This document shows, piece by piece, positions 1 to 61,021 of a DNA stretch of 64,000 bases. Position 1 is the first letter of the stretch, and each line of letters begins with the position of its first letter. Source of the stretch: Eledone cirrhosa (Eukaryota); contig OZ024757.1 in assembly GCA_964016885.1 (NCBI GenBank), positions 3,348,001-3,412,000 on the forward strand. The letters run 5' to 3'. The position numbers and the translations under genes are program-made. Below the pieces are notes generated by a model. It ran no database searches. It saw only the letters and a program-made list of their open reading frames with translations, and had not been told where the DNA came from.

Positions 1-3000
1 CTCCATTCAGAGATTCTTTCCTGAGACATTCTAACCACATATCTGTAGTATCAAAGCTGTGATCACTCAATTCAGAGATTCTTTCCTCAGACATTCTAAC
101 CACATGTCTATAGTATCAGAGCCTTGATCTTTCAATTCAGAGTTTCTCTTCAGAGACATTCTAACCACATGTCTGTCGTATCAGCGCTGTGATATCCGAA
201 TTCAGAGATTCTTTCCTAGGACTTTCTAAGCAGATGCCTGTAATATCAGAGCTGTGATCTCTCAATCCAGAAATTCTTTCCAGAGACATTCTAACCACAT
301 GACTGTGGTATCAGAGCTGTGATCTCTCATTTCAGAGATTCTTTCCCAAGATATTCTAACCACATATCTATAGTATCAGGGCTGTGATCTCTTAATTCAG
401 AGATTCTTTCCTGAGACATTCTAAACAGATGTCTGAAGTATCTGAGCTGTGATCTCTCAATTCAGAGATTCTTTCCTGAGACATTCTACCCACATATCTG
501 TAGTATCAGCGCAGTGATATCTCAATTCAGAGATTCTTTTCTCAGACATTCTAACCACATTTCTATAGTATTAGAGCTGTGATCTCACAATTCAAAGATT
601 CTTTCCTGAGACATTCTAACTACATGTCTTTAGTTTCAGAGCTGTAATCTCTCAATTCAGAGATTCTTTCCAGAGACATTCTAACCACATGACCATAGTA
701 TCAGAGCTTTGATCTCTCAACTCAGAGATTACTTCCAGAGACATTCTAACCACATGTCTATAGTATCAGAGCTGTGATCTCTCCATTCAGAGATTCTTTC
801 CTGAGACATTCTAACCACATGTCTATAGTATCAGAGCTGTGCTCTCTCAACTCAGAGATTCTTTCCTGTGACATTCTAACCACATGTCTATCGTGTCAGA
901 GCTGTGATCTCTCAATTCAGACATTCTTTCCTGAGACATTCTAACCACATATCTGTAGTATCAAAGCTGTGATCACTCAATTCAGAGATTCTTTCCTGAG
1001 ACATTCTAACCACATGTCTGTAGTATCAGAGCCTTGATCTCTCAATTCAAAGTTTCTTTTCAGAGACGTTCTAAACACATGTCTGTAGTACCAGCGCTGT
1101 GATATCCCAATTCAGAGATTCTTTCCTCAGACATTCTAACCAGATGCCTGTAGTATCAGAGCTGTGATCTCTCAATTCAGAGATTCTTTCCTGAGACATT
1201 CTAACCACATGACTGTGGTATCAGATCTGTGATCTCTCATTTCAGAGATTCTTTCCTGAGACATTATAACCCCATGTCTGTACTATCAGAGCTGTGATCT
1301 CTCAATTCAGAGATTCTTTCCTGCGACATTCTAACCACATGTGTGTATTATCAGGGCTGTGATCTATCAATTCAGAGATTCTTTCCTGAGACATTCTAAC
1401 CACATGTCTGTAGTATCAGAGGTGTGATCGCGCAATTCAAAGATTCTTTACTGAGACATTCTAACTACATGTCTGTAGTATCAGTGCTTTAATCTCTCAA
1501 TTCAGAGATTCTTTCCAGAGACATTCTAACCACATGACCATAGTATCAGAGCTGTGATCTCTCAATTCAGAGATTCTTTCCAGAGACATTCTAACCACAT
1601 GTCTATAGTATCAGAGCTGTGATCTCTCCAATCAGAGATTATTTCCTGAGACATTCTAACCACATGTCTGTAGTATCAGATCTGTGATCTCTCAATTCAG
1701 AGATTCTTTCCTGAGACATTCTAACCACATGTCTATAGTATCAGAGCTGTGATCTCTCAATTCAGAGATTCTTTCCTGAGACATTCTAACCACATATCTG
1801 TAGTATCAAAGGTGTGATCACTCAATTCAGAGATTCTTTTCTCAGACATTCTAACCACATGTGTATAGTATCAGAGCTGTGATCTCTCAATTCAGAGATT
1901 CTTTTCAGAGACATTCTAACCACATGTCTGTAGTATCAAAGCTGTGATATCCCAATTCAGAGATTCTTTCCTGAGACATTCCCGCCACCAATCAGAGATT
2001 CTTTCCTCAGACATTCTAACCACATGTCTATAGTGTCAGAGCCTTGATCTTTCAATTCAGAGTTTCTCTTCAGAGACATTCTAACCACATGTCTGTTGTA
2101 TCAGCGCTGTGATATCCAAATTCAGAGATTCTTTCCTAGGACTTTCTAAGCAGATGCCTGTAATATCAGAGCTGTGATCTCTCAATCCAGAAATTCTTTC
2201 CAGAGACATTCTAACCACATGACTGTGGTGTCAGAGCTGTGATCTCTCATTTCAGAGATTCTTTCCCAAGATATTCTAACCACATATCTATAGTATCAGG
2301 GCTGTGATCTCTTAATTCAGAGATTCTTTCCTGAGACATTCTAAACAGATGTCTGTAGTATCTGAGCTGTGATCTCTCAATTCAGAGATTCTTTCCTGAG
2401 ACATTCTACCCACATATCTGTAGTATCAGCGCAGTGATATCTCAATTCAGAGATTCTTTTCTCAGACATTCTAACCACATTTCTATAGTATTAGAGCTGT
2501 GATCTCACAATTCAAAGATTCTTTCCTGAGACATTCTAACTACATGTCTGTAGTATCAGAGCTGTAATCTCTCAATTCAGAGATTCTTTCCTGCGACATA
2601 CTAACCACATGTGTGTAGTATCAGGGCTGTGATCTATCAATTCAGAGATTCTTTCCTGAGACATTCTAACCACATGTCTGTAGTATCAGAGGTGTGATCG
2701 CTCAATTCAAAGATTCTTTCCTGAGACATTCTAACTACATGTCTGTAGTATCAGAGCTGCAATCTCTCAATTCAGAGATTCTTTCCAGAGACATTCTAAC
2801 CACATGACCATAGTATCAGAGCTGTGATCTCTCAATTCAGAGATTCTTTCCAGAGACGTTCTAACCACATGTCTATTGTATCAGGGCTGTGATCTCTCCA
2901 ATCAGAGATTATTTCCTGAGACATTCTAACCACATTTCTATTGTATCAGAGCTGTGATATCTCAATTTAGAGATTCTTTCCTGAGGCATTCTAACCACAT

Positions 3001-6000
3001 GTCTATAGCATCAGAGCTGTGATCTCTCAATTCAGAGATTCTTTCTTGAGACATTCTAACCACATGTCTGTGGTATCAGAGCTGTGATCTCTCAATTCAG
3101 AGATTCTTTCCTGAGACATTCTAACTAAATGTCTGTAGTATTAGAGCTGTGTTCTCCCCATTCAGAGATTCTTTCCTGAGACATTCTAACCACATGTCTA
3201 TAGTATCAGAGCTGTGATCTCTCAATTCAGAGATTCTTTCCTGAGACATTCTAACCACATGTCTATAGTATCAGAGCTGTGATCTCTCAATTCAGAGATT
3301 TTTTCCTGAGACATTCTAACCACATGCCTGTAGTATCAGAGGTGTGATCTCTCAATTCAGAGATTCTTTCCTGAGACATTCTAACTCACATGTCTGTAGT
3401 ATCATAGTTGTAATCTCTTAATTCAGAGATTATTTCCAGAGACATTCTAACCACATGACCATAGTATCAGAGCTGTGATCTTTCAATTCAGAGATTCTTT
3501 CCAGAGACATTCTAACCACATATCTGTAGTATCAGAGCTGTGATCACTCAATTCAGAGATTCTTTTCGCAGACATTCTAACCACATGTCTATAGTATCAG
3601 AGCTGTGATCTCTCAATTCAGAGATTCTTTTCAGAGACATTCTAACCACATGTCTTTAGTATCAAAGCTGTGATATCCCAATTCAGAGATTCTTTCCTCA
3701 GACATTCTAACCAGATGTCTGTAATATCAGAGCTGTGATCTCTCAATCCAGAGATTCTTTCCAGAGACATTCTAACCACATGACTGTGGTATCAGAACTG
3801 TGATCTCTCAATTCAGAGATTTTTTCCAGAGACATTCTAACCACATGTCTATAGTATCAGAGCTGTGATCTCTCCAATCAGAGATTATTTCCTGAGACAT
3901 TCTAACCACATGTCTGTAGTATCAGATCTTTGATCTCTCAATTCAGAGATTCTTTCCTGAGACATTCTAAGCACATGTCTATAGTATCAGAGCTGTGATC
4001 TCTCAATTCAGAGATTCTTTCCTGAGACATTCTAACCACATATCTCTAGTATCAGAGCTGTGATCACTCAATTCAGAGATTCTTTTCTCAGACATTCTAA
4101 CCACATGTCTATAGTATCAGAGCTGTGATCTCTCAATTCAGAGATTCTTTTCAGAGACATTCTAACCACATGCCTGTAGTATCAGAGGTGTGATCTCTCC
4201 ATTCAGAGATTCTTTCCTGAGACATTCCCGCCACCAATCTGTAGTATCAGCATTGTGATCTCTCAATTCAGAGATTCTTTTCTCAGACATTCTAACCACA
4301 TTTCTATAGTATCAAAGCTGTGATATCTCAATTTAGAGATTCTTTCCAGAGGCATTCTAACCACATGTCTATTGCATCAGAGCTGTGATCTCTCAATTCA
4401 GAGATTCTTTCTTGAGACATTCTAACCACATGTCTGTGGTATCAGAGCTGTGATCTCTCAATTCAGAGATTCTTTCCTGAGACATTCTAACTACATGTCT
4501 GTAGTATCAGAGCTTTAATCTCTCAATTCAGGGATTCTTTCCTGAGACATTCTAACCACATGTCTATATTATCAGAGCTGTGATCTCTCAATTCAGAGAT
4601 TCTTTCCTGAGACATTCTAACCACATGCCTGTAGTATCAGAGGTGTGATCTCTCCATTCAGAGATTCTTTCCTGAGACATTCTAACTACATGTCTGTAGT
4701 ATCAGAGCTGTGATCTCTCAATTCAGAGATTCTTTCCTGAGACATTCTAACCACATGTCTATAGTATCAGAGCTGTGATCTCTCAATTAAGAGATTCTTT
4801 CCTGAGACATTCTAACCACATGTCTATAGTATCAGAGCTGTGATCTCTCAATTCAGAGATTCTTTCCTGAGGCATTCTAACCACATGCCTGTAGAATCAG
4901 AGGTGTGATCTCACAATTCAGAGATTCTTTCCTGAGACATTCTAACCACATGTCTATAGTATCAGAGCTGTGATCTCTCAATTCAGAGATTCTTTTCAGA
5001 GACATTCTAACCACATGTCTGTAGTATCAAAGCTGTGATATCCCAATTCAGAGATTCTTTCCTGAGACATTCCCGCCACCAATCTGTTTGTATCAGTGTT
5101 GTGATCTCTCAATTCAGAGATTCTTTTCTCAGACATTCTAACCACATTTCTATTGTATCAGAGCTGTGATATCTCAATTTAGAGATTCTTTCCTGAGGCA
5201 TTCTAACCACATGTCTATAGCATCAGAGCTGTGATCTCTCAATTCAGAGATTCTTTCCTGAGACATTCTAACCACATGTCTGTGGTATCAGAGCTGTGAT
5301 CTCTCAATTCAGAGATTCTTTCCTGAGACATTCTAACCACATGTCTATAGTATCAGAGCTGTGATCTCTCAATTCAGAGATTCTTTCCTGAGACATTCTA
5401 ACCACATGCCTGTAGTATCAGAGGTGTGATCTCTCAATTCAGAGATTCTTTCCTGAGACATTCTAACTACATGTCTGTAGTATCAGAGCTGTGATCTCTC
5501 CATTCAGAGATTCTTTCCTGAGACATTCTAACCACATGTCTATAGTATCAGAGCTGTGATCTCTCAATTCAGAGATTCTTTCCTGAGACATTCTAACCAC
5601 ATGTCTATAGTATCAGAGCTGTGATCTCTCAATTCAGAGATTCTTTCCTGAGACATTCTAACCACATATCTGTAGTATCAAAGCTGTGATCACTCAATTC
5701 AGAGATTCTTTCCTCAGACATTCTCACCACATGTCTATAGTATCTGAGCCTTGATCTTTCAATTCAGAGTTTCTCTTCAGAGACATTCTAACCACATGTC
5801 TGTCGTATCAGCGCTGTGCTATCCGAATTCAGAGATTCTTTCCTAGGACTTTCTAAGCAGATGCCTGTAATATCAGAGCTGTGATCTCTCAATCCAGAAA
5901 TTCTTTCCAGAGACATTCTAACCACATGACTGTGGTATCAGAGGTGTGATCTCTCAATTCAGAGATTCTTTCCTGAGACATTCTAACTACATGTCTGTAG

Positions 6001-9000
6001 TATCAGAGCTGTGATCTCTCCATTCAGAGATTCTTTCCTGAGACATTCTAACCACATGTCTATAGTATCAGAGCTGTGATCTCTCAATTCAGAGATTTTT
6101 TCCTGAGACATTCTAACCACATGCCTGTAGTATCAGAGGTGTGATCTCTCAATTCAGAGATTCTTTCCTGAGACATTCTAACTCACATGTCTGTAGTATC
6201 ATAGCTGTAATCTCTTAATTCAGAGATTATTTCCAGAGACATTCTAACCACATGACCATAGTATCAGAGCTGTGATCTTTCAATTCAGAGATTCTTTCCA
6301 GAGACATTCTAACCACATATCTGTAGTATCAGAGCTGTGATCTCTCAATTCAGAGATCCTTTCCTGAGACATTCTAACCACATATCTGTAGTATCAGAGC
6401 TGTGATCACTCAATTCAGAGATTCTTTTCTCAGACATTCTAACCACATGTCTATAGTATCAGAGCTGTGATCTCTCAATTCAGAGATTCTTTTCAGAGAC
6501 ATTCTAACCACATGTCTGTAGTATCAAAGCTGTGATATCCCAATTCAGAGATTCTTTCCTGAGACATTCCCGCCACCAATCTGTAGTATCAGCATTGTGA
6601 TCTCTCAATTCACAGATTCTTTTCTCAGACATTCTAACCACATTTCTATAGTATCAGAGCTGTGATATCTCAATTTAGAGATTCTTTCCAGAGGCATTCT
6701 AAGCACATGTCTATAGCATCAGAGCTGTGATCTCTCAATTCAGAGATTCTTTCTTGAGACATTCTAACCACATGTCTATAGTATCAGAGCTGTGATCTCT
6801 CAATTCAGAGATTCTTTTCAGAGACATTCTAACCACATGTCTGTAGTATCAAAGCTGTGATATCCCAATTCAGAGATTCTTTCCTGAGACATTCCCGCCA
6901 CCAATCTGTAGTATCAGCATTGTGATCTCTCAATTCAGAGATTCTTTTCTCAGACATTCTAACCACATGTCTATAGCATCAGAGCTGTGATCTCTCAATT
7001 CAGAGATTCTTTCTTGAGACATTCTAACCACATGTCTGTGGTATCAGAGCTGTGATCTCTCAATTCAGAGATTCTTTCCTGAGACATTCTAACTACATGT
7101 CTGTAGTATCAGAGCTTTAATCTCTCAATTCAGGGATTCTTTCCTGAGACATTCTAACCACATGTCTATATTATCAGAGCTGTGATCTCTCAATTCAGAG
7201 ATTCTTTCCTGAGACATTCTAACCACATGCCTGTAGTATCAGAGGTGTGATCTCTCCATTCAGAGATTCTTTCCTGAGACATTCTAACTACATGTCTGTA
7301 GTATCAGAGCTGTGATCTCTCCATTCAGAGATTCTTTCCTGAGACATTCTAACCACATGTCTATAGTATCAGAGCTGTGATCTCTCAATTAAGAGATTCT
7401 TTCCTGAGACATTCTAACCACATGTCTATAGTATCAGAGCTGTGATCTCTCAATTCAGAGATTCTTTCCTGAGGCATTCTAACCACATGCCTGTAGAATC
7501 AGAGGTGTGATCTCACAATTCAGAGATTCTTTCCTGAGACATTCTAACCACATGTCTATAGTATCAGAGCTGTGATCTCTCAATTCAGAGATTCTTTTCA
7601 GAGACATTCTAACCACATGTCTGTAGTATCAAAGCTGTGATATCCCAATTCAGAGATTCTTTCCTGAGACATTCCCGCCACCAATCTGTTTGTATCAGTG
7701 TTGTGATCTCTCAATTCAGAGATTCTTTTCTCAGACATTCTAACCACATTTCTATTGTATCAGAGCTGTGATATCTCAATTTAGAGATTCTTTCCTGAGG
7801 CATTCTAACCACATGTCTATAGCATCAGAGCTGTGATCTCTCAATTCAGAGATTCTTTCCTGAGACATTCTAACCACATGTCTGTGGTATCAGAGCTGTG
7901 ATCTCTCAATTCAGAGATTCTTTCCTGAGACATTCTAACCACATGTCTATAGTATCAGAGCTGTGATCTCTCAATTCAAAGATTCTTTCCTGAGACATTC
8001 TAACCACATGCATGTAGTATCAGAGGTGTGATCTCTCAATTCAGAGATTCTTTCCTGAGACATTCTAACTACATGTCTGTAGTATCAGAGCTGTGATCTC
8101 TCCATTCAGAGATTCTTTCCTGAGACATTCTAACCACATGTCTATAGTATCAGAGCTGTGATCTCTCAATTCAGAGATTCTTTCCTGAGACATTCTAACC
8201 ACATGTCTATAGTATCAGAGCTGTGATCTCTCAATTCAGAGATTCTTTCCTGAGACATTCTAACCACATATCTGTAGTATCAAAGCTGTGATCACTCAAT
8301 TCAGAGATTCTTTCCTCAGACATTCTCACCACATGTCTATAGTATCTGAGCCTTGATCTTTCAATTCAGAGTTTCTCTTCAGAGACATTCTAACCACATG
8401 TCTGTCGTATCAGCGCTGTGCTATCCGAATTCAGAGATTCTTTCCTAGGACTTTCTAAGCAGATGCCTGTAATATCAGAGCTGTGATCTCTCAATCCAGA
8501 AATTCTTTCCAGAGACATTCTAACCACATGACTGTGGTATCAGAGGTGTGATCTCTCAATTCAGAGATTCTTTCCTGAGACATTCTAACTACATGTCTGT
8601 AGTATCAGAGCTGTGATCTCTCCATTCAGAGATTCTTTCCTGAGACATTCTAACCACATGTCTATAGTATCAGAGCTGTGATCTCTCAATTCAGAGATTT
8701 TTTCCTGAGACATTCTAACCACATGCCTGTAGTATCAGAGGTGTGATCTCTCAATTCAGAGATTCTTTCCTGAGACATTCTAACTCACATGTCTGTAGTA
8801 TCATAGCTGTAATCTCTTAATTCAGAGATTATTTCCAGAGACATTCTAACCACATGACCATAGTATCAGAGCTGTGATCTTTCAATTCAGAGATTCTTTC
8901 CAGAGACATTCTAACCACATATCTGTAGTATCAGAGCTGTGATCTCTCAATTCAGAGATCCTTTCCTGAGACATTCTAACCACATATCTGTAGTATCAGA

Positions 9001-12000
9001 GCTGTGATCACTCAATTCAGAGATTCTTTTCTCAGACATTCTAACCACATGTCTATAGTATCAGAGCTGTGATCTCTCAATTCAGAGATTCTTTTCAGAG
9101 ACATTCTAACCACATGTCTGTAGTATCAAAGCTGTGATATCCCAATTCAGAGATTCTTTCCTGAGACATTCCCGCCACCAATCTGTAGTATCAGCATTGT
9201 GATCTCTCAATTCAGAGATTCTTTTCTCAGACATTCTAACCACATTTCTATAGTATCAGAGCTGTGATATCTCAATTTAGAGATTCTTTCCAGAGGCATT
9301 CTAAGCACATGTCTATAGCATCAGAGCTGTGATCTCTCAATTCAGAGATTCTTTCTTGAGACATTCTAACCACATGTCTGTGGTATCAGAGCTGTGATCT
9401 CTCAATTCAGAGATTCTTTCCTGAGACATTCTAACTACATGTCTGTAGTATCAGAGCTGTAATCTCTCAATTCAGAGATTCTTTCCTGAGACATTCTAAC
9501 CACATGTCTATATTATCAGAGCTGTGATCTCTCAATTCAGAGATTCTTTCCTGAGACATTCTAACCACATGCCTGTAGTATCAGAGGTGTGATCTCTCCA
9601 TTCAGAGATTCTTTTCTGAGACATTCTAACTACATGTCTGTAGTATCAGAGCTGTGATCTCTCCATTCAGAGATTCTTTCCTGAGACATTCTAACCACAT
9701 GTCTATAGTATAACAGCTGTGATCTCTCAATTAAGAGATTCTTTCCTGAGACATTCTAACCACATGTCTATAGTATCAGAGTTGTGATCTCTCAATTCAG
9801 AGATTCTTTCCTGAGACATTCTAACCACATGCCTGTAGAATCAGAGGTGTGATCTCTCAATTTAGAGATTCTTTCCTGAGACATTCTAACTACATGTCTG
9901 TAGTATCAGAGCTGTAATCTCTTAATTCAGAGATTCTTTCCAGAGACATTCTAACCACATGTCTGTAGTATCAGATCTGTGATCTCTCAATTCAGAGATT
10001 CTTTCCTGAGACATTCTAACCACATGTCTATAGTATCAGAGCTGTGATCTCTCCAATCAGAGATTATTTCCTGAGACATTCTAACCACATGTCTGTAGTA
10101 TCAGATCTTTGATCTCTCAATTCAGAGATTCTTTCCTGAGACATTCTAAGCACATGTCTATAGTATCAGAGCTGTGATCTCTCAATTCAGAGATTCTTTC
10201 CTGAGACATTCTAACCACATATCTCTAGTATCAGAGCTGTGATCACTCAATTCAGAGATTCTTTTCTCAGACATTCTAACCACATGTCTATAGTATCAGA
10301 GCTGTGATCTCTCAATTCAGAGATTCTTTTCAGAGACATTCTAACCACATGCCTGTAGTATCAGAGGTGTGATCTCTCCATTCAGAGATTCTTTCCTGAG
10401 ACATTCCCGCCACCAATCTGTAGTATCAGCATTGTGATCTCTCAATTCAGAGATTCTTTTCTCAGACATTCTAACCACATTTCTATAGTATCAAAGCTGT
10501 GATATCTCAATTTAGAGATTCTTTCCAGAGGCATTCTAACCACATGTCTATTGCATCAGAGCTGTGATCTCTCAATTCAGAGATTCTTTCTTGAGACATT
10601 CTAACCACATGTCTGTGGTATCAGAGCTGTGATCTCTCAATTCAGAGATTCTTTCCTGAGACATTCTAACTACATGTCTGTAGTATCAGAGCTTTAATCT
10701 CTCAATTCAGGGATTCTTTCCTGAGACATTCTAACCACATGTCTATATTATCAGAGCTGTGATCTCTCAATTCAGAGATTCTTTCCTGAGACATTCTAAC
10801 CACATGCCTGTAGTATCAGAGGTGTGATCTCTCCATTCAGAGATTCTTTCCTGAGACATTCTAACTACATGTCTGTAGTATCAGAGCTGTGATCTCTCAA
10901 TTCAGAGATTCTTTCCTGAGACATTCTAACCACATGTCTATAGTATCAGAGCTGTGATCTCTCAATTAAGAGATTCTTTCCTGAGACATTCTAACCACAT
11001 GTCTATAGTATCAGAGCTGTGATCTCTCAATTCAGAGATTCTTTCCTGAGGCATTCTAACCACATGCCTGTAGAATCAGAGGTGTGATCTCACAATTCAG
11101 AGATTCTTTCCTGAGACATTCTAACCACATGTCTATAGTATCAGAGCTGTGATCTCTCAATTCAGAGATTCTTTTCAGAGACATTCTAACCACATGTCTG
11201 TAGTATCAAAGCTGTGATATCCCAATTCAGAGATTCTTTCCTGAGACATTCCCGCCACCAATCTGTTTGTATCAGTGTTGTGATCTCTCAATTCAGAGAT
11301 TCTTTTCTCAGACATTCTAACCACATTTCTATTGTATCAGAGCTGTGATATCTCAATTTAGAGATTCTTTCCTGAGGCATTCTAACCACATGTCTATAGC
11401 ATCAGAGCTGTGATCTCTCAATTCAGAGATTCTTTCCTGAGACATTCTAACCACATGTCTGTGGTATCAGAGCTGTGATCTCTCAATTCAGAGATTCTTT
11501 CCTGAGACATTCTAACCACATGTCTATAGTATCAGAGCTGTGATCTCTCAATTCAGAGATTCTTTCCTGAGACATTCTAACCACATGCCTGTAGTATCAG
11601 AGGTGTGATCTCTCAATTCAGAGATTCTTTCCTGAGACATTCTAACTACATGTCTGTAGTATCAGAGCTGTGATCTCTCCATTCAGAGATTCTTTCCTGA
11701 GACATTCTAACCACATGTCTATAGTATCAGAGCTGTGATCTCTCAATTCAGAGATTCTTTCCTGAGACATTCTAACCACATGTCTATAGTATCAGAGCTG
11801 TGATCTCTCAATTCAGAGATTCTTTCCTGAGACATTCTAACCACATATCTGTAGTATCAAAGCTGTGATCACTCAATTCAGAGATTCTTTCCTCAGACAT
11901 TCTCACCACATGTCTATAGTATCTGAGCCTTGATCTTTCAATTCAGAGTTTCTCTTCAGAGACATTCTAACCACATGTCTGTCGTATCAGCGCTGTGCTA

Positions 12001-24000: not shown

Positions 24001-27000
24001 TTCTAACCACATGTCTATAGCATCAGAGCTGTGATCTCTCAATTCAGAGATTCTTTCTTGAGACATTCTAACCACATGTCTGTGGTATCAGAGCTGTGAT
24101 CTCTCAATTCAGAGATTCTTTCCTGAGACATTCTAACCACATGTCTATAGTATCAGAGCTGTGATCTCTCAATTCAGAGATTCTTTCCTGAGACATTCTA
24201 ACCACATGCCTGTAGTATCAGAGGTGTGATCTCTCAATTCAGAGATTCTTTCCTGAGACATTCTAACTACATGTCTGTAGTATCAGAGCTGTGAACTCTC
24301 CATTCAGAGATTCTTTCCTGAGACATTCTAACCACATGTCTATAGTATCAGAGCTGTGATCTCTCAATTCAGAGATTCTTTCCTGAGACATTCTAACCAC
24401 ATGTCTATAGTATCAGAGCTGTGATCTCTCAATTCAGAGATTCTTTCCTGAGACGTTCTAACCACATATCTGTAGTATCAAAGCTGTGATCACTCAATTC
24501 AGAGATTCTTTCCTCAGACATTCTAACCACATGTCTATAGTATCAGAGCCTTGATCTTTCAATTCAGAGTTTCTCTTCAGAGACATTCTAACCACATGTC
24601 TGTCGTATCAGCGCTGTGATATCCGAATTCAGAGATTCTTTCCTAGGACTTTCTAAGCAGATGCCTGTAATATCAGAGCTGTGATCTCTCAATCCAGTAA
24701 TTCTTTCCAGAGACATTCTAACCACATGACTGTGGTATCAGAGGTGTGATCTCTCATTTCAGAGATTCTTTCCAGAGGCATTCTAAGCACATGTCTATAG
24801 CATCAGAGCTGTGATCTCTCAATTCAGAGATTCTGTCTTGAGACATTCTAACCACATGTCTGTGGTATCAGAGCTGTGATCTCTCAATTCAGAGATTCTT
24901 TCCTGAGACATTCTAACTACATGTCTGTAGTATCAGAGCTGTAATCTCTCAATTCAGAGATTCTTTCCTGAGACATTCTAACCACATGTCTATATTATCA
25001 GAGCTGTGATCTCTCAATTCAGAGATTCTTTCCTGAGACATTCTAACCACATGCCTGTAGTATCAGAGGTGTGATCTCTACATTCAGAGATTCTTTCCTG
25101 AGACATTCTAACTACATGTCTGTAGTATCAGAGCTGTGATCTCTCCATTCAGAGATTCTTTCCTGACACATTCTAACCACAAGTCTATAGTATCAGAGCT
25201 GTGATCTCTCAATTAAGAGATTCTTTCCTGAGACATTCTAACCACATGTCTATAGTATCAGAGCTGTGATCTCTCAATTCAGAGATTCTTTCCTGAGACA
25301 TTCTAACCACATGCCTGTAGAATCAGAGGTGTGATCTCTCAATTTAGAGATTCTTTCCTGAGACATTCTAACTACATGTCTGTAGTATCAGAGCTGTAAT
25401 CTCTTAATTCAGAGATTCTTTCCAGAGACATTCTAACCACATGTCTGTAGTATCAGATCTGTGATCTCTCAATTCAGAGATTCTTTCCTGAGACATTCTA
25501 ACCACATGTCTATAGTATCAGAGCTGTGATCTCTCAATTCAGAGATTCTTTCCTGAGACATTCTAACCACATATCTGTAGTATCAGAGGTGTGATCACTC
25601 AATTCAGAGATTCTTTTCTCAGACATTCTAACCACATGTCTATAGTATCAGAGCTGTGATCTCTCAATTCAGAGATTCATTCAGAGACATTCTAACCACA
25701 TGTCTGTAGTATCAAAGCTGTGATATCCCAATTCAGAGATTCTTTCCTGAGACATTCCCGCCACCAATCTGTTTGTATCAGTGTTGTGATCTCTCAATTC
25801 AGAGATTCTTTTCTCAGACATTCTAACCACATTTCTATTGTATCAGAGCTGTGATATCTCAATTTAGAGATTCTTTCCTGAGGCATTCTAACCACATGTC
25901 TATAGCATCAGAGCTGTGATCTCTCAATTCAGAGATTCTTTCTTGAGACATTCTAACCACATGTCTGTGGTATCAGAGCTGTGATCTCTCAATTCAGAGA
26001 TTCTTTCCTGAGACATTCTAACCACATGCCTGTAGTATCAGAGGTGTGATCTCTCAATTCAGAGATTCTTTCCTGAGACATTCTAACTCCATGTCTGTAG
26101 TATCAGAGCTGTGATCTCTCCATTCAGAGATTCTTTCCTGAGACATTCTAACCACATGTCTATAGTATCAGAGCTGTGATCTCTCAATTCAGAGATTCTT
26201 TCCTGAGACATTCTAACCACATGTCTATAGTATCAGAGCTGTGATCTCTCAATTCAGAGATTCTTTCCTGAGACATTCTAACCACATATCTGTAGTATCA
26301 AAGCTGTGATCACTCAATTCAGAGATTCTTTCCTCAGACATTCTAACCACATGTCTATAGTATCAGAGCCTTGATCTTCCAATTCAGAGTTTCTCTTCAG
26401 AGACATTCTAACCACATGTCTGTCGTATCAGCGCTGTGATATCCGAATTCAGAGATTCTTTCCTAGGACTTTCTAAGCAGATGCCTGTAATATCAGAGCT
26501 GTGATCTCTCAATCCAGAAATTCTTTCCAGAGACATTCTAACCACATGACTGTGGTATCAGAGGTGTGATCTCTCAATTCAGAGATTCTTTCCTGAGACA
26601 TTCTAACTACATGTCTGTAGTATCAGAGCTGTGATCTCTCCATTCAGAGATTCTTTCCTGAGACATTCTAACCACATGTCTATAGTATCAGAGCTGTGAT
26701 CTCTCAATTCAGAGATTCTTTCCTGAGACATTCTAACCACATGTCTATAGTATCAGAGCTGTGATCTCTCAATTCAGAGATTTTTTCCTGAGACATTCTA
26801 ACCACATGCCTGTAGTATCAGAGGTGTGATCTCTCAATTCAGAGATTCTTTCCTGAGACATTCTAACTCACATGTCTGTAGTATCATAGCTGTAATCTCT
26901 TAATTCAGAGATTATTTCCAGAGACATTCTAACCACATGACCATAGTATCAGAGCTGTGATCTTTCAATTCAGAGATTCTTTCCAGAGACATTCTAACCA

Positions 27001-30000
27001 CATATCTGTAGTATCAGAGCTGTGATCCCTCAATTCAGAGATTCTTTCCTGAGACATTCTAACCACATATCTGTAGTATCAGAGCTGTGATCACTCAATT
27101 CAGAGATTCTTTTCGCAGATATTCTAACCACATGTCTATATTATCAGAGCTGTGATCTCTCAATTCAGAGATTCTTTTCAGAGACATTCTAACCACATGT
27201 CTTTAGTATCAAAGCTGTGATATCCCAATTCAGAGATTCTTTCCTCAGACATTCTAACCAGATGTCTGTAGTATCAGAGCTGTGATCTCTCAATCCAGAG
27301 ATTCTTTCCAGAGACATTCTAACCACATGACTGTGGTATCAGAACTGTGATCTCTCAATTCCGAGATTTTTTCCAGAGACATTCTAACCACATGTCTATA
27401 GTATCAGAGCTGTGATCTCTCCAATCAGAGATTATTTCCTGAGACATTCTAACCACATGTCTGTAGTATCAGATCTGTGATCTCTCAATTCAGAGATTCT
27501 TTCCTGAGACATTCTAAGCACATGTCTATAGTATCAGAGCTGTGATCTCTCAATTCAGAGATTCTTTCCTGAGACATTCTAACCACATATCTCTAGTATC
27601 AGAGCTGTGATCACTCAATTTAGAGATTCTTTTCTCAGACATTCTAACCACATGTCTATAGTATCAGAGCTGTGATCTCTCAATTCAGAGATTCTTTTCA
27701 GAGACATTCTAACCACATGTATGTAGTATCAAAGCTGTGATATCCCAATTCAGAGATTCTTTCCTGAGACATTCCCGCCACCAATCTGTAGTATCAGCGT
27801 TGTGATCTCTCAATTCAGAGATTCTTTTCTCAGACATTCTAACCACATTTCTATAGTATCAGAGCTGTGATATCTCAATTTAGAGATTCTTTCCAGAGGC
27901 ATTCTAAGCACATGTCTATAGCATCAGAGCTGTGATCTCCCAATTCAGAGATTCTTTCTTGAGACATTCTAACCACATGTCTGTGGTATCAGAGCTGTGA
28001 TCTCTCAATTCAGAGATTCTTTCCTGAGACATTCTAACTACATGTCTGTAGTATCAGAGCTGTAATCTCTCAATTCAGAGATTCTTTCCTGAGACGTTCT
28101 AACCACATGTCTTTATTATCAGAGCTGTGATCTCTCAATTCAGAGATTCTTTCCTGAGACATTCTAACCACATGCCTGTAGTATCAGAGGTGTGATCTCT
28201 CAATTCAGAGATTCTTTCCTGAGACATTCTAACTATATGTATGAAGTATCAGAGCTGTGATCTCTCCATTCAGAGATTCTTTTCTGAGACATTCTAACCA
28301 CATGTCTATAGTATCAGAGCTGTGATCTCTCAATTAAGAGATTCTTTCCTGAGACATTCTAACCACATGTCTATAGTATCAGAGCTGTGATCTCTCAATT
28401 CAGAGATTCTTTCCTGAGACATTCTAACCACATGCCTGTAGAATCAGAGGTGTGATCTCTCAATTTAGAGATTCTTTCCTGAGACATTCTAACTACATGT
28501 CTGTAGTATCAGAGCTGTAATCTCTTAATTCAGAGATTCTTTCCAGAGACATTCTAACCACATGACCATAGTATCAGAGCTGTGATCTCTCAATTCAGAG
28601 ATTCTTTCCAGAGACATTCTAACCACATATCTGTAGTATCAGAGCTGTGATCTCTCAATTCAGAGATTCTTTCCTGAGACATTCTAACCACATGACCATA
28701 GTATCAGAGCTGTGATCACTCAATTCAGAGATTCTTTTCGCAGACATTCTAACCACATGTCTATAGTATCAGAGCTGTGATCTCTCAATTCAGAGATTCT
28801 TTTCAGAGACATTCTAACCACATGTCTTTAGTATCAAAGCTGTGATATCCCAATTCAGAGATTCTTTCCTCAGACATTCTAACCAGATGTCTGTAGTATC
28901 AGAGCTGTGATCTCTCAATCCAGAGATTCTTTCCAGAGACATTCTAACCACATGTCTATAGTATCAGAGCTGTGATCTCTCCATTCAGAGATTCTTTCCT
29001 AAGACATTCTAACCACATGTCTGTAGTATCAGAGCTGTGATCTCTCAATTCAGAGATTCTTTCCTGAGACATTCTAACCACATGTCTGTAGTATCAGAGC
29101 TGTGATCTCTCAACTCAGAGATTCTTTCTTGAGACATTCTAACCACATGTCTATAGTATTTAGAGCCGTGATCTCTCAATTCAGAGATTCTTTCCTGTGA
29201 CATTCCCGCCACCAATCTGTAGTATCATCGTTGTGATCTCTCAATTCAGAGATTCTTTTCTCAGACATTCTAACCACATTTCTATAGTTTCAGAGCTGTG
29301 ATATCTCAATTCAGAGATTCTTTTCTGAGACATTCTAACCACATGTCTGTATTATAAAAGCTGTGATCTCTCAATTTAGAGATTCATTCCTGAGACATTC
29401 TAACCACATGTCTTCAGTATTAGAGCTATGATGTCTCAATCCAGAGATTCTTTCCTGAGACATTCTAACCACATATCTATAGTATTAGAGCTGTGATCTC
29501 TCAATTCAAAGATTCTTTCCAGAGATATTCTTACCACATGTCTGTAGTATCAGAGCTGTGATCTCTCAATTCAGAGATTCTTTCCTGAGACATTCTAACC
29601 ACATGTCTGTAGTATCAGAGGTGTGATCTCTCAATTCAGAGATACTTTCCTGAGACATTCTAACCACATGTCTTTAGTATCAGATGTGTGATCTCTCAAT
29701 TCAGAGATTCTTTCCTGAGACATCCTAACCACATGTCAGTAGTATCAGAGCTGTGATCTCTCAATTCAGAGATTCTTTCCTGAGACATTCTAACCACATG
29801 ACCATAGTATCAGAGCTCTGATCCCTCAATTCAGAGAATCCTTCCAGAGACATTCTAATCACATGTCTATAGTATCAGAGCTGTGATCTCTCCAGTCAGA
29901 GATTCTTTCCTGAGACATTCTAACCACATGTCTATAGTATCAGAGCTGTTATCTCTCAATTCAGAGATTCTTTCCTGAGACATTCTAACCACATATCTGT

Positions 30001-33000
30001 AGTATCAAAGCTGTGATCACTCAATTCAGAGTTTCTTTTCTGAGACATTCTAACCACATGTCTGTAGTATCAGCGCTGTGATATCCCAATTCAGAGATTC
30101 TTTCCTCAGACATTCTAACCAGATGCCTGTAGTATCAGAGCTGTGATCTCTCAATTCAGAGATTCTTTCCTGCGACGTTCTAACTACATGTCTGTAGTAT
30201 CAGAGCTGTGATCTCTCCATTCAGAGATTCTTTCCTGAGACATTCTAACCACATGTCTATAGTATCAGAGCTGTTATCTCTCAATTCAGAGATTCTTTCC
30301 TGAGACATTCTAACCCCATGGCTGTACTATCAGAGATGTGATCTCTCAATTCAGAGATTCTTTCCTGAGGCATCCTAACCACATGTCTGTAGTTTCAGAG
30401 CTGTGATCTCTCAATTCAGAGATTCTTTCCTGAGATATTCTAACCACATGTCTGTAGTATCAGAGCTGTGATCTCTCAATTCAGAGATTCTTTCCTGCGA
30501 CGTTCTAACTACATGTCTGTAGTATCAGAGCTGTGATCTGTCAATTCAGAGATTCTGTAGTATCAGATCTGTGATCTCTCAATTCAAAGATTCTTTCCAG
30601 AGATATTCTTACCACATGTCTGTAGTATCAGAGCTGTGATCTCTCAATTCAGTGATTCTTTCCTTAGACATTCTAACCACATGTCTGTAGTATCAGAGCT
30701 CTCATCTCTCAATTCAGAGATTATTTCCTGAGACATTCTAACCACATGTCTATAGTATCAGAGCTGTGATCTCTCAACTCAGAGATTCTTTCCTGAGACA
30801 TTCTAACCACATGTCTATAGTATCAGAGCTGTGATCTCTCTATTCAGAGATTCTTTCCTGAGACATTCTAACCCCCAATCTGTAGTATCCGCGTTGTGAT
30901 CTCTCAATTCAGAGATTTTTTTCTCAAACATTCTAACCACATTTCTATAGTATCAGAGCTGTGATTTGTCAATTCTGAGATTCTTTCCTGAGGCATTCTA
31001 ACCACATGTCTATAGCATCATAGCTGTGATATCTCAATTCAGAGATTCTTTCCTGAGACATTCTAACGACATGTCTTAAGTATCAGAGCTGTGATCTCTC
31101 AATTCAGAGATTCTTTCCAGAGACATTCTAACCCATGTCTATAGTATCAGAGCTGTGATCTCTCAATTCAGAGATTCTTTCCTGAGACATTCTAACTACA
31201 TGTCTGTAGTATCAGAGCTGTAATCTCTAAATTCAGAGATTCTTTCCAGAGACATTCTAACCACATGACCATAGTATCAGAGCTGTGATCTCTCAATTCA
31301 GAGATTCTTTCCAGAGACATTCTTACCACATGTCTATAGTATCAGATCTGTGATCTCTCTATTCAGAGATTCTTTCCTGAGACATTCTAACCTCATGTCT
31401 ATAGTATCAGAGCTGTGATCTCTCAATTTAGAGATTCTTTCCTGAGACATTCTAACCACATGTCTATAGTATCAGAGCTGTGATCTCTCAATTCAGAGAT
31501 TCTTTCCTGAGACATTCTAACCACATATCTGTAGTATCAAAGCTGTGATCACTCAATTCAGAGATTCTTTCCTCACACATTCTAACCACATGTCTATCGT
31601 ATCAGAGCCTTGATCTCTCAATTCAGAGTTTCTTTTCAGAGACATTCGAACCACATGTCTGTCGTATCAGCGCTGTGATATTCCAATTCAGAGATTCTTT
31701 CCTCAGACATTCTAACCAGATGCCTGTAGTATCAGAGCTGTGATCTCTCAATCCAGAGATTCTTTCGAGAGACATTCTAACCACATGACTGTGGTATCAG
31801 AGCTGTGATCTCTCATTTCAGAGATTCTTTCCCAAGATATTCTAACCACATATCTATTGTATCAGGGCTGTGATCTATCAATTCAGAGATTCTTTCCAGA
31901 GACATTCTAACCAGATCTCTGTAGTATCAGAGCTGTGATCTCTCAATTCAGAGATTCAATCCTGAGACATTCTACCCACATATCTGTAGTATCAGCTCAG
32001 TGATCTCTCAATTCAGAGATTCTTTTCTCAGACATTCTAACCACATTTCTATAGTATCAGAGCTGTGATCTCTCAATTCAGAGATTCTTTCCTGAGACAT
32101 TTTAACCACATGTCTATATTATCAGAGCTGTGATCTCTCAATTTAGAGATTCTTTCCTGAGACATTCTAACCACATGACTGTGGTATCAGAGCTGTGATC
32201 TCTCAATTCAGAGATTTATTTCCTGAGACATTTTAACCACATGTCTGTAGTATCAGAAGTGTGATCTCTCAACTCAGAGATTCTTTCCTGAGACATTCTA
32301 ACCACATGTCTGTAGTATCAGAGCTGTGATCTCTCAATCCAGAGATTCTTTCCAGAGACATTCTAACCACATGACTGGGTATGAGAGCTGTGATATCTCA
32401 TTTCAGAGATTCTTTCCTGTGACATCCTAACCACATGTCTGTAGTATAAAAGCTGTGATCTCTCAATTCAGAGATTGTTTCCTGAGACATTCTAACCCCA
32501 TGTCTGTACTATCAGAGCTGTGATCTCTCAATCCAGAGATTCTTTCCTGAGACATTCTAACCCCATGTCTGTAGTATCAGAGCTGTGATCTCTCAATTCA
32601 GAGATTCTTTCCTGAGACATTCTAACCACATATCTGTAGTATCAAAGCTGTGATCACTCAATTCAGAGATTCTTTCCTGAGACATTCTAACCACCAATCT
32701 GTAGTATCAGAGCCTTGATCTCTCAATTCAGAGCTTCTTTTCAGAGACATTCTAACCACATGTCTATAGTATCAGAGCTGTGATCTCTCTATTCAGAGAT
32801 TCTTTCCTGAGACATTCTAACCCCCAATCTGTAGTATCCGCGTTGTGATCTCTCAATTCAGAGATTTTTTTCTCAAACATTCTAACCACATTTCTATAGT
32901 ATCAGAGCTGTGATTTGTCAATTCTGAGATTCTTTCCTGAGGCATTCTAACCACATGTCTATAGCATCATAGCTGTGATATCTCAATTCAGAGATTCTTT

Positions 33001-35853
33001 CCTGAGACATTCTAACGACATGTCTTAAGTATCAGAGCTGTGATCTCTCAATTCAGAGATTCTTTCCAGAGACATTCTAACCCATGTCTATAGTATCAGA
33101 GCTGTGATCTCTCAATTCAGAGATTCTTTCCTGAGACATTCTAACTACATGTCTGTAGTATCAGAGCTGTAATCTCTAAATTCAGAGATTCTTTCCAGAG
33201 ACATTCTAACCACATGACCATAGTATCAGAGCTGTGATCTCTCAATTCAGAGATTCTTTCCAGAGACATTCTTACCACATGTCTATAGTATCAGATCTGT
33301 GATCTCTCTATTCAGAGATTCTTTCCTGAGACATTCTAACCTCATGTCTATAGTATCAGAGCTGTGATCTCTCAATTTAGAGATTCTTTCCTGAGACATT
33401 CTAACCACATGTCTATAGTATCAGAGCTGTGATCTCTCAATTCAGAGATTCTTTCCTGAGACATTCTAACCACATATCTGTAGTATCAAAGCTGTGATCA
33501 CTCAATTCAGAGATTCTTTCCTCACACATTCTAACCACATGTCTATCGTATCAGAGCCTTGATCTCTCAATTCAGAGTTTCTTTTCAGAGACATTCGAAC
33601 CACATGTCTGTCGTATCAGCGCTGTGATATTCCAATTCAGAGATTCTTTCCTCAGACATTCTAACCAGATGCCTGTAGTATCAGAGCTGTGATCTCTCAA
33701 TCCAGAGATTCTTTCGAGAGACATTCTAACCACATGACTGTGGTATCAGAGCTGTGATCTCTCATTTCAGAGATTCTTTCCCAAGATATTCTAACCACAT
33801 ATCTATTGTATCAGGGCTGTGATCTATCAATTCAGAGATTCTTTCCAGAGACATTCTAACCAGATCTCTGTAGTATCAGAGCTGTGATCTCTCAATTCAG
33901 AGATTCAATCCTGAGACATTCTACCCACATATCTGTAGTATCAGCTCAGTGATCTCTCAATTCAGAGATTCTTTTCTCAGACATTCTAACCACATTTCTA
34001 TAGTATCAGAGCTGTGATCTCTCAATTCAGAGATTCTTTCCTGAGACATTTTAACCACATGTCTATATTATCAGAGCTGTGATCTCTCAATTTAGAGATT
34101 CTTTCCTGAGACATTCTAACCACATGACTGTGGTATCAGAGCTGTGATCTCTCAATTCAGAGATTTATTTCCTGAGACATTCTAACCACATGTCTGTAGT
34201 ATCAGAAGTGTGATCTCTCAACTCAGAGATTCTTTCCTGAGACATTCTAACCACATGTCTGTAGTATCAGAGCTGTGATCTCTCAATCCAGAGATTCTTT
34301 CCAGAGACATTCTAACCACATGACTGGGTATGAGAGCTGTGATATCTCATTTCAGAGATTCTTTCCTGTGACATCCTAACCACATGTCTGTAGTATAAAA
34401 GCTGTGATCTCTCAATTCAGAGATTGTTTCCTGAGACATTCTAACCCCATGTCTGTACTATCAGAGCTGTGATCTCTCAATCCAGAGATTCTTTCCTGAG
34501 ACATTCTAACCCCATGTCTGTAGTATCAGAGCTGTGATCTCTCAATTCAGAGATTCTTTCCTGAGACATTCTAACCACATATCTGTAGTATCAAAGCTGT
34601 GATCACTCAATTCAGAGATTCTTTCCTGAGACATTCTAACCACCAATCTGTAGTATCAGAGCCTTGATCTCTCAATTCAGAGCTTCTTTTCAGAGACATT
34701 CTAACCACATGTCTGTAGTATCAGCGCTGTGATATCCCAATTCAGAGATTCTTTCCTCAGACATTCTAACCAGATGCCTGTAGTATCAGAACTGTGATCT
34801 CTCAATTCAGAGATTCTTTCCAGAGACATTCTAACCACATGACTGTGGTATCAGAGCTGTGATCTCTCCATTGAGAGATTCTTTCCTGAGACATTCTAAC
34901 CACATGTCTGTAGTATCAGATCTGTGATCTCTCAATTCAGAGATTCTTTCCTGAGACATTCTAACCCCATGTCTGTACTATCAGAGGTGTGATTTCTCAA
35001 TTCAGAGATTCTTTCCTGAGACATCCTAACCACATGTCTGTACTATCAGAGGTGTGATCTCTCAATTCAGAGATTCTTTGCTGAGACATCCTAACCACAT
35101 GTCTGTAGTATCAGAGCTGTGATCTCTCAATTCAGAGATTCTTTCTTGAGACATTCTAACCACATGTCTGTAGTATTAGAAGTTTGATCGCTCAATTCAA
35201 AGATTCTTTCCTGAGACATTCTAACTACATGGCTGTAGTATCAGAGCTGTAATCTCTCAATTCAGAGATTCTTTCCAGAGACATTCTAACCACATGACCA
35301 TAGTATCAGAGCTGTGATCTCTCAATTCAGAGATTCTTTCCAGAGACATTCTAACCACATGTCTATAGTATCAGAGCTGTGATCTCTCCAATCAGAGATT
35401 CTTTCCTTAGACATTCTAACCACATGACCATAGTATCAGAGCTGTGATCTCTCAATTCAGAGATTCTTTTCGCAGACATTCTAACCACATGTCTATAGTA
35501 TCAGAGCTGTGATATCTCCATTCAGAGATTCTTTCCTGAGACATTCTAACCACATGCCTGTAATATCAGAGCTGTGATCTCTCAATTCAGAGATTCTTTC
35601 CTGAGACATTCTAACCACATGTCTGTAGTATCAGAGCTGTGATCTCTCAATTCAGAGATTCTTTCTTGAATCATTCCAACCACATGTCTGTAGTATCAGA
35701 GCTGTGATCTCTCAATTCAGAGATTCTTTCCTGCGACATTCTAACCACATGTCTGTAGTATCAGAGCTGTGATCTCTCAATTCAGAGATTCTTTCCTGAG
35801 ACATTCTAACCACATGTCTGTAGTATCAGAGCTGTGATCTTTCAATTCGGAGA
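1..35853. repeat. 65-bp tandem satellite array (~550 monomers), open at the left window edge
   Basis: Consensus CTCAATTCAGAGATTCTTTCCTGAGACATTCTAACCACATGTCTRTAGTATCAGAGCTGTGATCT. The register recurs at positions 1, 781 and 1561 (steps of 12x65). The array ends abruptly at ~35853. Confidence 0.99.
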
Positions 35854-36059
35854 AGTTGGGGCTCTACTAGGAGTGACTCTCTCATCTCCAAGCCACGTAC
35901 TCTAGTGAGTAATGTTACCCCCAAAACCCTTTGGAGTAACCTCATTTCAGTCTCTTGTATTCGTGATCGTATTCTTTCGGTCATTTTCTAAGACTCTTGA
36001 CTATAGGTAAGGGTTGGTACGAATACCGAACTGAAGACAGCGAGTTTGACTTTTACATC
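35785..36059 (-). pseudogene. Decayed RTE-clade (Expander/Rex3-like) LINE ORF fragment, C-terminal to the RT core, contiguous with the satellite
   Basis: Manual minus-strand translation: DVKVKLAVFSSVFVPTLTYSQES*KMTERIRSRIQETEMRLLQRVLGVTLLTRVRGLEMRESLLVEPQLLRIERSQL*YYRHVVRMSQERIS. This matches the recalled RTE motif series 'PTLTYG.E.W.MTER.RSRIQAAEM.FLRRV.G...EPLLLRIERSQLRW.GH.VRM'. It contains two in-frame stops. Confidence 0.85.
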
Positions 36060-36378
36060 TCCATACTCCTGACCTTTACACCTACTTCTGATTACTGAAT
36101 GTTGAAGCTAGCGGATTACTGCACCAACTCCTGCAATTATTTTGTAATTAAAATACCTGACGACCAGACAATTGTTTTCATTGATACTCAGAGTTTCGTG
36201 ATGGTACCAGATTAATCTGGTGTGCATCAACAATCTTCAGCCTTTCTGAAAATATATGTTTACTGTTTACGGTGCTGAATCCCACTGAAAATGTTATTTT
36301 GAATTTTTTCGATCTAGAGGAGGCAACTCTGGCCGGAAAACAAATTGTGTGTCGAGTATATTTACGTTTTGCCTGACG

Positions 36379-41359: not shown

Positions 41360-43244
41360 CTACAGATGTTTGGTATGTATGTGGAGTTGGAGTCGGAGTT
41401 TTCACCAGAAAGCTCAGCATAGATGACTGTTTTGTTTGCTTTTTTTTCTCATCATAAATTTAACGATAGCAACGTAGTCCATCTTCCAAATGTCTTTGAA
41501 ATTTTGCCAAGCGTTCAATGTTAGGATCCATTGCCTCCAATCCTGACATCGCCTTACACATATACGTGAATACTTCCGCCAAGCCCTTAACAGTGAACTT
41601 TTTCTGTTCTTCATCTGGTTGTTCTGCTGCTTCTTCCAACTCTTCTCTATGTCGCTGCTCTTCCAACTCTATTAAATCTTCGTCAGTCAACTCTCCTTCA
41701 ACAAAATTCACTAAATTTTCCACATCTTGCGCATTCTCTTCCAACCGCAACTTTTGAGCAAGACCAACAATTTTATTACTTATCACTTCAAAATCAGAAT
41801 TTTTATCAAAACCTTCAAAATTATTAACAAACTTTTTCAAGTACTTTTTCCATACACCTTTCATACATTTTACACTCAGGTCCCGCCAAGCTCCGTCGAT
41901 GTTCTTGGTGCAGTTGACAATATTAAAATCTTTCCAAAATTCACGAAGATCCATTACGTCATCCTCCGTTGCTGTTACTACCTGCACAAAAGTAGTTCGT
42001 AAATAATTGTTTCTACTTTTTGGCACAAGGCCAGCAATTACCCAGTGCATTACTGGTACTTTATTTTATCGACCCCGTAAGGATGAAAGGCAAAGTTAAC
42101 CTCGGCGGGATTTGAACTCAGAATGGCAAAGACCGTAACTCTATGCGTCAAAGCATGGCGTCCGACCCTCTACCGATACTGCCAATCCATCGCCCGTAGT
42201 TCGTAAATAATACGCATTGAAAGTAGATATCACCCCCTGGTCCATTGGTTGAAGAATTGACGTCGTATTTTTGAGCAGATACACTACTTTAACATTAGGA
42301 TGCAGGTCATCAATATGTTGGGCGCGGCCTGGGGCATTATCGGGGAGAAGTAGAATTTTGAAGGGAATGTTGTTTTCAAGGCAGTATTCCCTGGCTGAAG
42401 GTATAAAGTAGTTGATGAACCAGTTCTCGAACAAAGATTGCGTCATCCATACCTTGTTGTTTGCCCGATAAAACACTGGCAGCGTTTGTTCACGTTTATG
42501 CACGTGGGGTTTGGGAGCGATAAATAACAAATGGTTTCAACTTATGCCCCGCAACATTTCCGCCTAAAATCACTCGATCCTTGAATACCTTGAAGCCGGG
42601 CATACTTTTAGCCTCTTTGTGAAGATACGTTCTTTCAGGCATTTTTTTTCCAAAAGTGGCCAGTTTCGTCGACACTGAACATTTATTCCGGGCAATAGTC
42701 TCCTTCCTCAATAATCTTGTATAAAACATCGAGGAATGTTTTTGCTGCTTCCGTATCAGCACTTGCTGCTTCACCAGTAATGCGACGGTTGTGCAAATTA
42801 AATCGACGACGAAATTGCTGGAACCAACCGTGGCTTGCCGCAAACGTTTCAGTACACTCGTCTCCCTCACGTGACTTGAGTTTCTCGAAGATGCTGCGCG
42901 CCTTGCTTTGAATAATATGAAGACTCATTGGCATTCGTTTGGCTATTTGGTCATCAAACCACATGGTCAACAATTTCTCCATTTCATGTATCAGGCCTTT
43001 TCGCTGTCTTGTTATCAAAGCATTGTATCCCGTTGTGTTCTTGACCGTCTCCTTCACTCGATCTTTGTCCTCGAGGATGGTAGATATAGTAGAACTTGCT
43101 AAGTTCATTCTAGCAGCAATTGCGTTCACTTTAACCTCCTTCTTCTTATTGTTTGATGATCTTCAGCTTTGTTTCTATATCAATGGATTTCCTTGACTTC
43201 TTGTGATAAGGTCCTGGTGTAGTACTGGGTATTGTTGCTGACAT
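41360..43244 (-). pseudogene. Tigger1/TIGD1-like transposase pseudogene (CENP-B-type HTH domains plus DD32D)
   Basis: Consecutive ORF pieces: MSATIPS..RKSIDIETKLKIIKQ, FAASHGWFQQFRRRFNL, VDETG, LLLPDNAPG, SILQPMDQGVI (32 residues between D2 and D3). Contains premature stops, frameshifts and a SINE insertion. The 3' end coordinate is approximate. Confidence 0.93.
42008..42195 (-). mobile_element. tRNA-derived SINE inserted into the transposase, with a 16-bp TSD
   Basis: TSD GTAGTTCGTAAATAAT at 41992-42007 and 42196-42211. A-box-like TGGCAGTATCGG and B-box GAGTTCAAATCC on the minus strand. Central domain GCCTTTCATCCTTACGGGGTCGATAAAATAAAGTACCAG. Confidence 0.95.
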
Positions 43245-60874: not shown

Positions 60875-61021
60875 CTGCAAAGAGAAAAATCGATAGATTA
60901 ATCAAAGGTAGTATAAATATATATAGGCTAAACGCTATATTATCTAGAGCTTCATTTATACAAATCATATTTAGGCGTAATATGTATAGTAAGCTTTGCA
61001 AACAAAAATATATTTTAAAAG

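Follow-up and report, generated by a model that had tools for sequence, protein, structure and literature searches.

Introduction

In Lathyrus sativus, short tandem arrays lie at a fixed position within dispersed copies of Ogre retrotransposons, and a few of them expand into long satellites (PMC7004042). In Drosophila simulans and D. mauritiana, the young Rsp-like repeat has used the abundant, dispersed 1.688 clusters as a partner to reach many sites, mostly within one chromosome, either by conversion between loci or by reintegration of extrachromosomal circular DNA (eccDNA) (PMC7403614). The maize repeats CRM1TR and CRM4TR arose separately from the same region of related elements, share the position of their 3' end and undergo gene conversion (PMC3648361), and the monomers of cetacean common satellite, PROsat, Pvc20 (L1) and chicken HinfI (CR1) are homologous to long interspersed nuclear elements (LINEs), including ORF2 (PMC9659126). 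The term RTE is absent from the main text of PMC9659126. Each system resembles in part the one described here, a 65-bp satellite in a 64,000-nucleotide stretch of the octopus Eledone cirrhosa (the window, G000:C18:3,348,001-3,412,000 of a 3.0-Gb assembly), where a tandem array adjoins a decayed copy of its putative Rex3/RTE-type parent LINE.

A LINE-derived satellite alone is known and ordinary. How a satellite disperses from a single locus to many others has long been unsettled, and is usually hard to test since neither donor nor landing site leaves a trace. In Eledone the landing sites are LINE copies whose flanks can be dated and whose empty state, one unit, is known; seeding, tract length and expansion are thus open to measurement at every locus and to comparison across species. 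We favour a reading in which the 65-bp satellite moves by ectopic gene conversion into dead copies of its parent LINE and then expands locally; the array that enters the window, on contig C18, probably occupies one such host. The literature searched, outside which lie most subscription journals, held nothing on a satellite derived from an RTE open reading frame (ORF), on an octopus satellite like this one, or on the spread of a satellite into copies of its parent LINE.

Results

The 65-bp unit is a slice of a LINE reading frame

Minus-strand positions 36128-35781 of the window match amino acids 873-983 of a 1049-aa protein with endonuclease and reverse transcriptase (RT) domains at 53% identity (E 7e-30), and the reading frame passes from unique sequence into the first unit without a frameshift (unit column 1 is window position 35848, minus strand; Table 1). 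A preliminary description, made from the letters alone, had reported this unbroken frame and proposed that the monomer, in at least 550 units, is a slice of an RTE-clade LINE ORF; the protein match and the number of units in the window bear this out, and the origin of the unit in a Rex3/RTE-type LINE ORF is secure. The expectation that the LINE would resume beyond the far end of the array also held. At C18:2,820,432 it returns in register and, after a short deletion, runs into a GAA tail, with a match to amino acids 993-1041 of the 1049-aa endonuclease and RT protein (E 1e-09). The proposed colinearity extends to the family, since most of 17 aligned copies continue through the unit into a 3' end with a GAA tail.

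The parent is filed as Rex3/RTE-type on its database relatives, on the window protein match and on motifs, rather than on an RT tree. One genomic family copy carries a 254-aa frame that matches Pfam RVT_1 above the cut-off (E 1.7e-08). Its relatives are 1030-1057-aa endonuclease and RT proteins (PF03372/PF14529 plus PF00078; 57-62% identity), in which the single-ORF layout of about 1,000 aa is present, and teleost RT proteins match it at 56-57% as well. By eye, the motifs that surround the unit can be found in the RTE/Rex3 protein supplement of PMC2887409, including GaRex3-a01. In PMC2887409 and PMC6274825, the Rex3/RTE subgroup has like C-terminal motifs, a single apurinic endonuclease (APE) and RT protein of about 1,000-1,050 aa (as in the close relatives here) and a short GAA tail after the ORF. 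Family copies and the C18 far end likewise have a very short, simple-repeat 3' untranslated region (UTR), with GAA runs after the last codons. The tail of fish Rex3, two GAA followed by GATG/GATC repeats, differs from that of the aligned Eledone copies, which have GAA runs only. A zinc knuckle pattern was absent from all six full-length relatives, and no intact copy was found among 150 scored family matches, in which the longest open frame was 312 aa. Pfam gave no usable match for two short window peptides, from a region that sits after the RT domain.

The C18 host itself has two in-frame TAG stops (36110-36108 and 35990-35988) ahead of the TGA in unit 1, and is dead through these regardless of the TGA. 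The earlier argument that this TGA marks a template already dead is unsafe, since arrays on C1 and at L138 combine the 65-bp junction with an intact CGA. The best other match to the host in the genome is 84% (40 of 4536 candidates scored). The host is likely, though not proven, to be a single insertion; its candidate 5-bp target-site duplication is at chance level, since mismatched pairs share five or more bases in 20% of cases, and 2/10 real copies do so. At about 36070-36085 (minus strand) the host has a 15-bp in-frame insertion, like a short local duplication, that is absent from the 17 aligned family copies.

The array is far longer than the window

Both the array and the LINE piece of the preliminary description are real, but their extents needed correction: the LINE reaches about 36140 rather than 36059, and the array spans about 563 kb rather than 36 kb. 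It occupies C18:2,820,432-3,383,853 (563,422 bp, about 8,670 units), of which 295,422 bases (52%) were read. It is unbroken over 100 kb read onward from the window, and is present in 9/9 samples down to C18:2,900,001 and in 20/20 further 4-kb samples. In the bases read it keeps a single orientation, with a largest gap of 193 bp between detected unit starts; as a long head-to-tail run of one monomer it is satellite DNA. Parsing of the window gave 551 unit starts, 521 of them at exact 65-bp spacing. A regular higher-order repeat was not found in the C18 array, no lag up to 259 units giving a difference far below the median, and its units lie 5.3-6.5% from their majority sequence. Unit 1 has the satellite-type bases at columns 21, 29, 30 and 32 and is one base off the majority; at the TGA site, T is found in 3036/3102 units of the array. 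The array is likely without coding function, and its longest stop-free run in the window is 59 codons across the three LINE-sense frames.

An assembly artefact as the source of the repeat was rejected. The 65-back joint is present in contigs of 4/4 sequencing runs, labelled as four organisms and drawn from three studies, so the 65-bp repeat is real and may predate Eledone cirrhosa. A 501-bp contig of run X1 matches the flank exactly, and X1 may be the assembly's own sample. No RNA run was among those listed as carrying the sequence.

Table 1. Positions of the 65-bp array, its host LINE and further long arrays of the same slice. Window positions unless a contig is named.
Feature	Position	Strand	Length	Remarks
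65-bp tandem array, one end	1..35853	-		about 550 units inside the window; Tandem Repeats Finder (TRF) period 65
First full unit	35784..35848	-		in frame with the LINE flank
TGA in unit 1	35826..35828	-		CGA in most LINE copies (CpG decay)
Decayed LINE copy, 5'-truncated, putatively Rex3/RTE-type	35849..36140	-		C-terminal ORF region past the RT domain
Long 65-bp array	C1:2.887-2.949 Mb		about 62 kb	LINE at both ends; sampled, not read through
Long 65-bp array	C2:413.56-413.67 Mb		at least 108 kb	LINE tail; sampled, not read through
Long 65-bp array	C1:417.6 Mb		at least 60 kb	sampled, not read through
99-bp array, same slice	C4:211,175,840-211,523,005 (L224-L228, L260)		about 347 kb	sampled

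Many LINE copies hold the array in register

The assembly contains 21,281 exact matches to the unit junction (control 0), of which about 2,860 (~13%) are expected in the C18 array. Reverse-strand matches outnumber forward ones (16,382 vs 4,899); the known long minus-strand arrays cover only part of this excess, so more large arrays are still unlocated. A search for the array-to-tail junction gave 40 places, and at 29/29 non-self loci that were fetched the array, of 2 to more than 25 units, ends in register on a LINE tail. Among 16 tail-picked arrays that were seen whole, 12 are in register with a LINE flank at their start as well, the LINE being truncated at points that vary from -15 to -280; two of the other four start inside the unit and two are rearranged. 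The arrays thus lie at a fixed position inside many dispersed LINE copies, although some ends lack a LINE (3' in L052, 5' in L057). When LINE copies were chosen by their tail alone, 3/29 held arrays.

Some loci depart from this anatomy. L208 (C1:406.75 Mb) has 88 units and lacks a LINE tail; its LINE flank is short and deleted, and its 5' flank has a few telomere-like TTAGGG units. At C25:24.96 Mb, L214 and L059 form a cassette of LINE plus array that recurs, flanks included, at a spacing of a few kb, so arrays are multiplied by local segmental duplication too. At C18:5.77-12.31 Mb the LINE-to-unit pattern has six near-identical variant matches, likely a local segmental family.

Host copies are old and their monomers are young

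The tails of array hosts are 84.7% alike in pairwise comparison (528 pairs among 33 of 35 hosts, two being too short), compared with 83.0% in 20 array-free copies. No tail column is diagnostic of array hosts against array-free copies (best p 0.011 in 724 tests), and the one array-host pair with identical tails is a segmental copy. On a tree of 49 tails, from which four short rows were dropped, the array label changes 13 times against a shuffled mean of 15.3, a value as low in 67/500 shuffles. Monomers, in contrast, lie only 2.7% from their column majority, against 7.1% for the host tails at non-CpG sites, and the tails are the more diverged at 26/29 loci (p 2.6e-7). The difference between arrays is 4.9%.

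Columns 21, 29, 30 and 32 and junction column 63 distinguish the satellite from the LINE majority, each satellite base being present in at least 93% of 824 dispersed units. First and last units are both satellite-type in 10/14 arrays. Growth of each array from its host's own unit would make arrays differ as their hosts do; since they do not, sequence has moved between loci after the LINE copies inserted. We infer the pathway of this transfer from the edges of the arrays, among other evidence. In 23/35 arrays the satellite base extends to the final position ahead of the tail, a count biased by a junction query that carried this 3'-edge base, compared with 198/4312 LINE ends genome-wide; at the position before unit 1 it is found in 15/24 arrays vs 7/41. 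As a genome-wide marker of arrays the 3'-edge base failed, for 17/20 sampled matches were single-unit copies.

Sibling repeats share the slice and its alleles

The same LINE slice yields repeats of 123, 109, 99, 84 and 70 bp, all nested within -48 to +75. The 123-bp units, of 41 codons, differ by 8.9% between loci and are older than the 65-bp family; those on small contigs have T at -12, -1 and 21 and A at 32, like the 65-bp family. The 65-bp unit appears to descend from, or to have exchanged sequence with, this 123-bp repeat. The 99-bp array on C4 carries the 65-bp satellite bases at columns 21-32, begins at the unit start and abuts another tandem repeat at its end, with a LINE at neither end. 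In the C1:2.887-2.949 Mb array the CGA is kept, a rare base is common to the array and its own host, and recombinant units are present. A further unit length of the slice is probably represented by 13 pattern matches at 94-bp spacing at C9:5,829,324-5,830,493.

Proposed conversion into LINE relics and the alternatives

The main rival to gene conversion is carriage by retrotransposition, in which a LINE variant with a short internal tandem repeat would have been copied widely, and its arrays would have grown locally and been homogenised later. PMC7004042 provides a precedent. Varied 5' truncation points and GAA tails suit separate retrotransposition events, the 123-, 99- and 84-bp units preserve the reading frame, and several of the following observations, which weigh against conversion, speak for such carriage. 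The tail tree is a star in which a single clade of array hosts is not rejected by the approximately unbiased (AU) test (p 0.112), even though host and monomer ages differ and no tail column is diagnostic. T at -12 is found in 13/24 array hosts vs 6/42; it is a CpG-decay base that lies outside the 65-bp unit and inside the 123-bp repeat. At -119, a CpG site outside every repeat unit, A is found in 6/8 array hosts vs 1/33, in comparison sets partly selected by similarity in that region; this shared base is unexplained and hints at shared host ancestry. The minor haplotype is also present in single-unit copies. A pattern that joins the LINE flank to the column 29/30/32 haplotype has 201 matches, of which 20 were hand-picked: 13/14 on large contigs were single-unit and 10/14 had the ancestral column 21, whereas 6/6 on C21-C24 were multi-unit. 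Such single-unit copies may be conversion footprints or a minor subfamily. Single-unit copies with the full satellite haplotype (L246, L280, L282 and L283), in contrast, speak for conversion. Against conversion stand, in addition, the 3/29 loci at which monomers are as diverged as their own tails, the query bias affecting the 3'-edge and C25 counts, and the lack of any empty orthologous site among the sequences seen, where no contig from the other-organism runs spans the unique flank or orthologous site of the C18 array. The age gap, moreover, proves transfer between loci, not that the first extra unit of each locus arrived in this way.

Carriage nevertheless fits other evidence poorly. Derived bases are fixed in the repeated slice, yet the tail, over about 170 bp that include about 8 CpG sites, has no fixed one, and the monomers are far younger than the tails. 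Retrotransposition would scatter copies as the plain LINE is scattered, and recombination would not. Plain LINE matches are mostly on the largest contigs, C1-C4, whereas the arrays crowd small ones: C25, 1% of the genome, holds 22/40 junction matches, found with a query taken from C25 and so biased towards it, vs 0/40 and 0/39 plain LINE matches. Queries from the C18 window likewise returned C25 arrays. The 123-bp junction has 1509 matches, with none on the 443-Mb C1 among the matches listed, and conversion between loci would be needed under carriage in any case. We regard wide retrotransposition of a repeat-bearing LINE as unlikely, if still a serious competitor.

The preliminary description had proposed that the C18 LINE copy is the progenitor, still attached to the array, so that the first 65-bp duplication there founded the family. 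LINE ends do flank this array in register on both sides, and column 29 keeps the LINE-type base in 1310/3102 units (42%), a variant largely confined to the C18 array, where about 1,040 of 1,262 genome-wide matches are expected. Its unit diversity, at the 5.3-6.5% given above, would also suit a founder, but equal internal diversity in the long C1 and C2 arrays led us to drop high diversity as proof. The proposal does not survive the comparison with other loci. The same array stands in register in dozens of unrelated LINE copies, the host has C directly ahead of unit 1 where the matching junction base of the array is T in 3053/3102 units (C in 2), only ~13% of exact junctions are expected in the C18 array, and the candidate target-site duplication offers nothing above chance. 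We consider a founding role for the C18 copy improbable. Slightly less probable still is recurrent local birth, a model that treats the slice as a hotspot of duplication: every host would have doubled its own unit at the same weak microhomology, and later conversion would have removed most of the differences. The ends of several unit lengths fall within 10 bp of one another, the C1 array that keeps CGA has a rare base in common with the first partial unit of its own host, and there are two-unit copies with LINE-type bases (L105, L107 and L253). The microhomology once invoked at the boundary, however, was obtained by setting the unit start against itself; between the two real LINE sites, exact identity covers only 2 bases, or 5/6 after CpG decay. 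Neither the LINE region folded as RNA nor four units folded as DNA stood out from shuffles (z -0.10 and -0.28), so a structure-driven hotspot is unsupported. The junction is base-identical at many loci, and all unit types are nested in the 123-bp span, as expected of deletion derivatives.

Ectopic gene conversion would proceed from a break in or near the 65-bp slice of a host LINE. An existing array would serve as the repair template, with strand invasion through at least 60 bases at ~90% homology; synthesis would cross several units and return to the host tail, replacing the host's unit, and unequal exchange would later lengthen a few arrays. More tentatively, the 65-bp unit itself would have arisen by deletion from the older 123-bp (41-codon) repeat. 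We are evenly divided on a fuller picture in which the satellite 'homes' into LINE relics with no nuclease of its own, thousands of these dispersed relics serve as landing sites through which the nested 123-, 99-, 84-, 70- and 65-bp repeats trade alleles, a few hosts reach 60-560 kb, and all stages from one converted unit to a half-megabase array are visible in a single genome.

Other features of the window

At 59437-60897 (minus strand), a 486-codon frame matches the C-terminal half of an octopod metabotropic glutamate receptor-like protein (amino acids 486-1026 of P0121); its best named matches are from Argonauta hians and from Octopus bimaculoides, the latter at 90% over 70% of the query. 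It is apparently the last coding exon, so the array starts about 23.6 kb downstream of its stop. A broken pogo/Tigger-like DNA transposase lies in three frames at 41460-43162 (minus strand), with HTH_Tnp_Tc5 and DDE_1 above cut-off. The fragment at 49981-50460 (plus strand) is from the ORF of a second, distant non-LTR (long terminal repeat) retrotransposon, weakly similar to the Rex3-type protein (E 0.003-0.02) and without a Pfam match. Two small unrelated tandem repeats are at 47572-47913 (about 59/60 bp x 5.7) and 48241-48854 (40 bp x 15.3).

Discussion

Satellites derived from transposable elements, LINEs included, are already known; spread through the parent family would be new. If such spread is real, a satellite derived from any abundant retrotransposon would have a ready-made path of dispersal that does not depend on transposition.

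The systems closest to the Eledone satellite differ from it in ways that bear on this point. In PMC7004042, the Ogre arrays of Lathyrus are in a non-coding region of an LTR element and their dispersal is ascribed to amplification of the element, whereas the Eledone unit is LINE coding sequence, its hosts are old and unrelated, and its monomers are younger than those hosts. LINE-derived satellites in the accessible part of PMC9659126 were recognised by sequence similarity, whereas the Eledone flanks are visible in register at many loci. The maize repeats, according to PMC3648361, derive from LTR and UTR sequence and show little or no movement between loci; in Eledone, chromosomes and unit types have alleles in common. 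The partner of Rsp-like, as described in PMC7403614, is an unrelated satellite joined by microhomology. That of the Eledone satellite is its own parent LINE family, which offers full-length homology in exact register.

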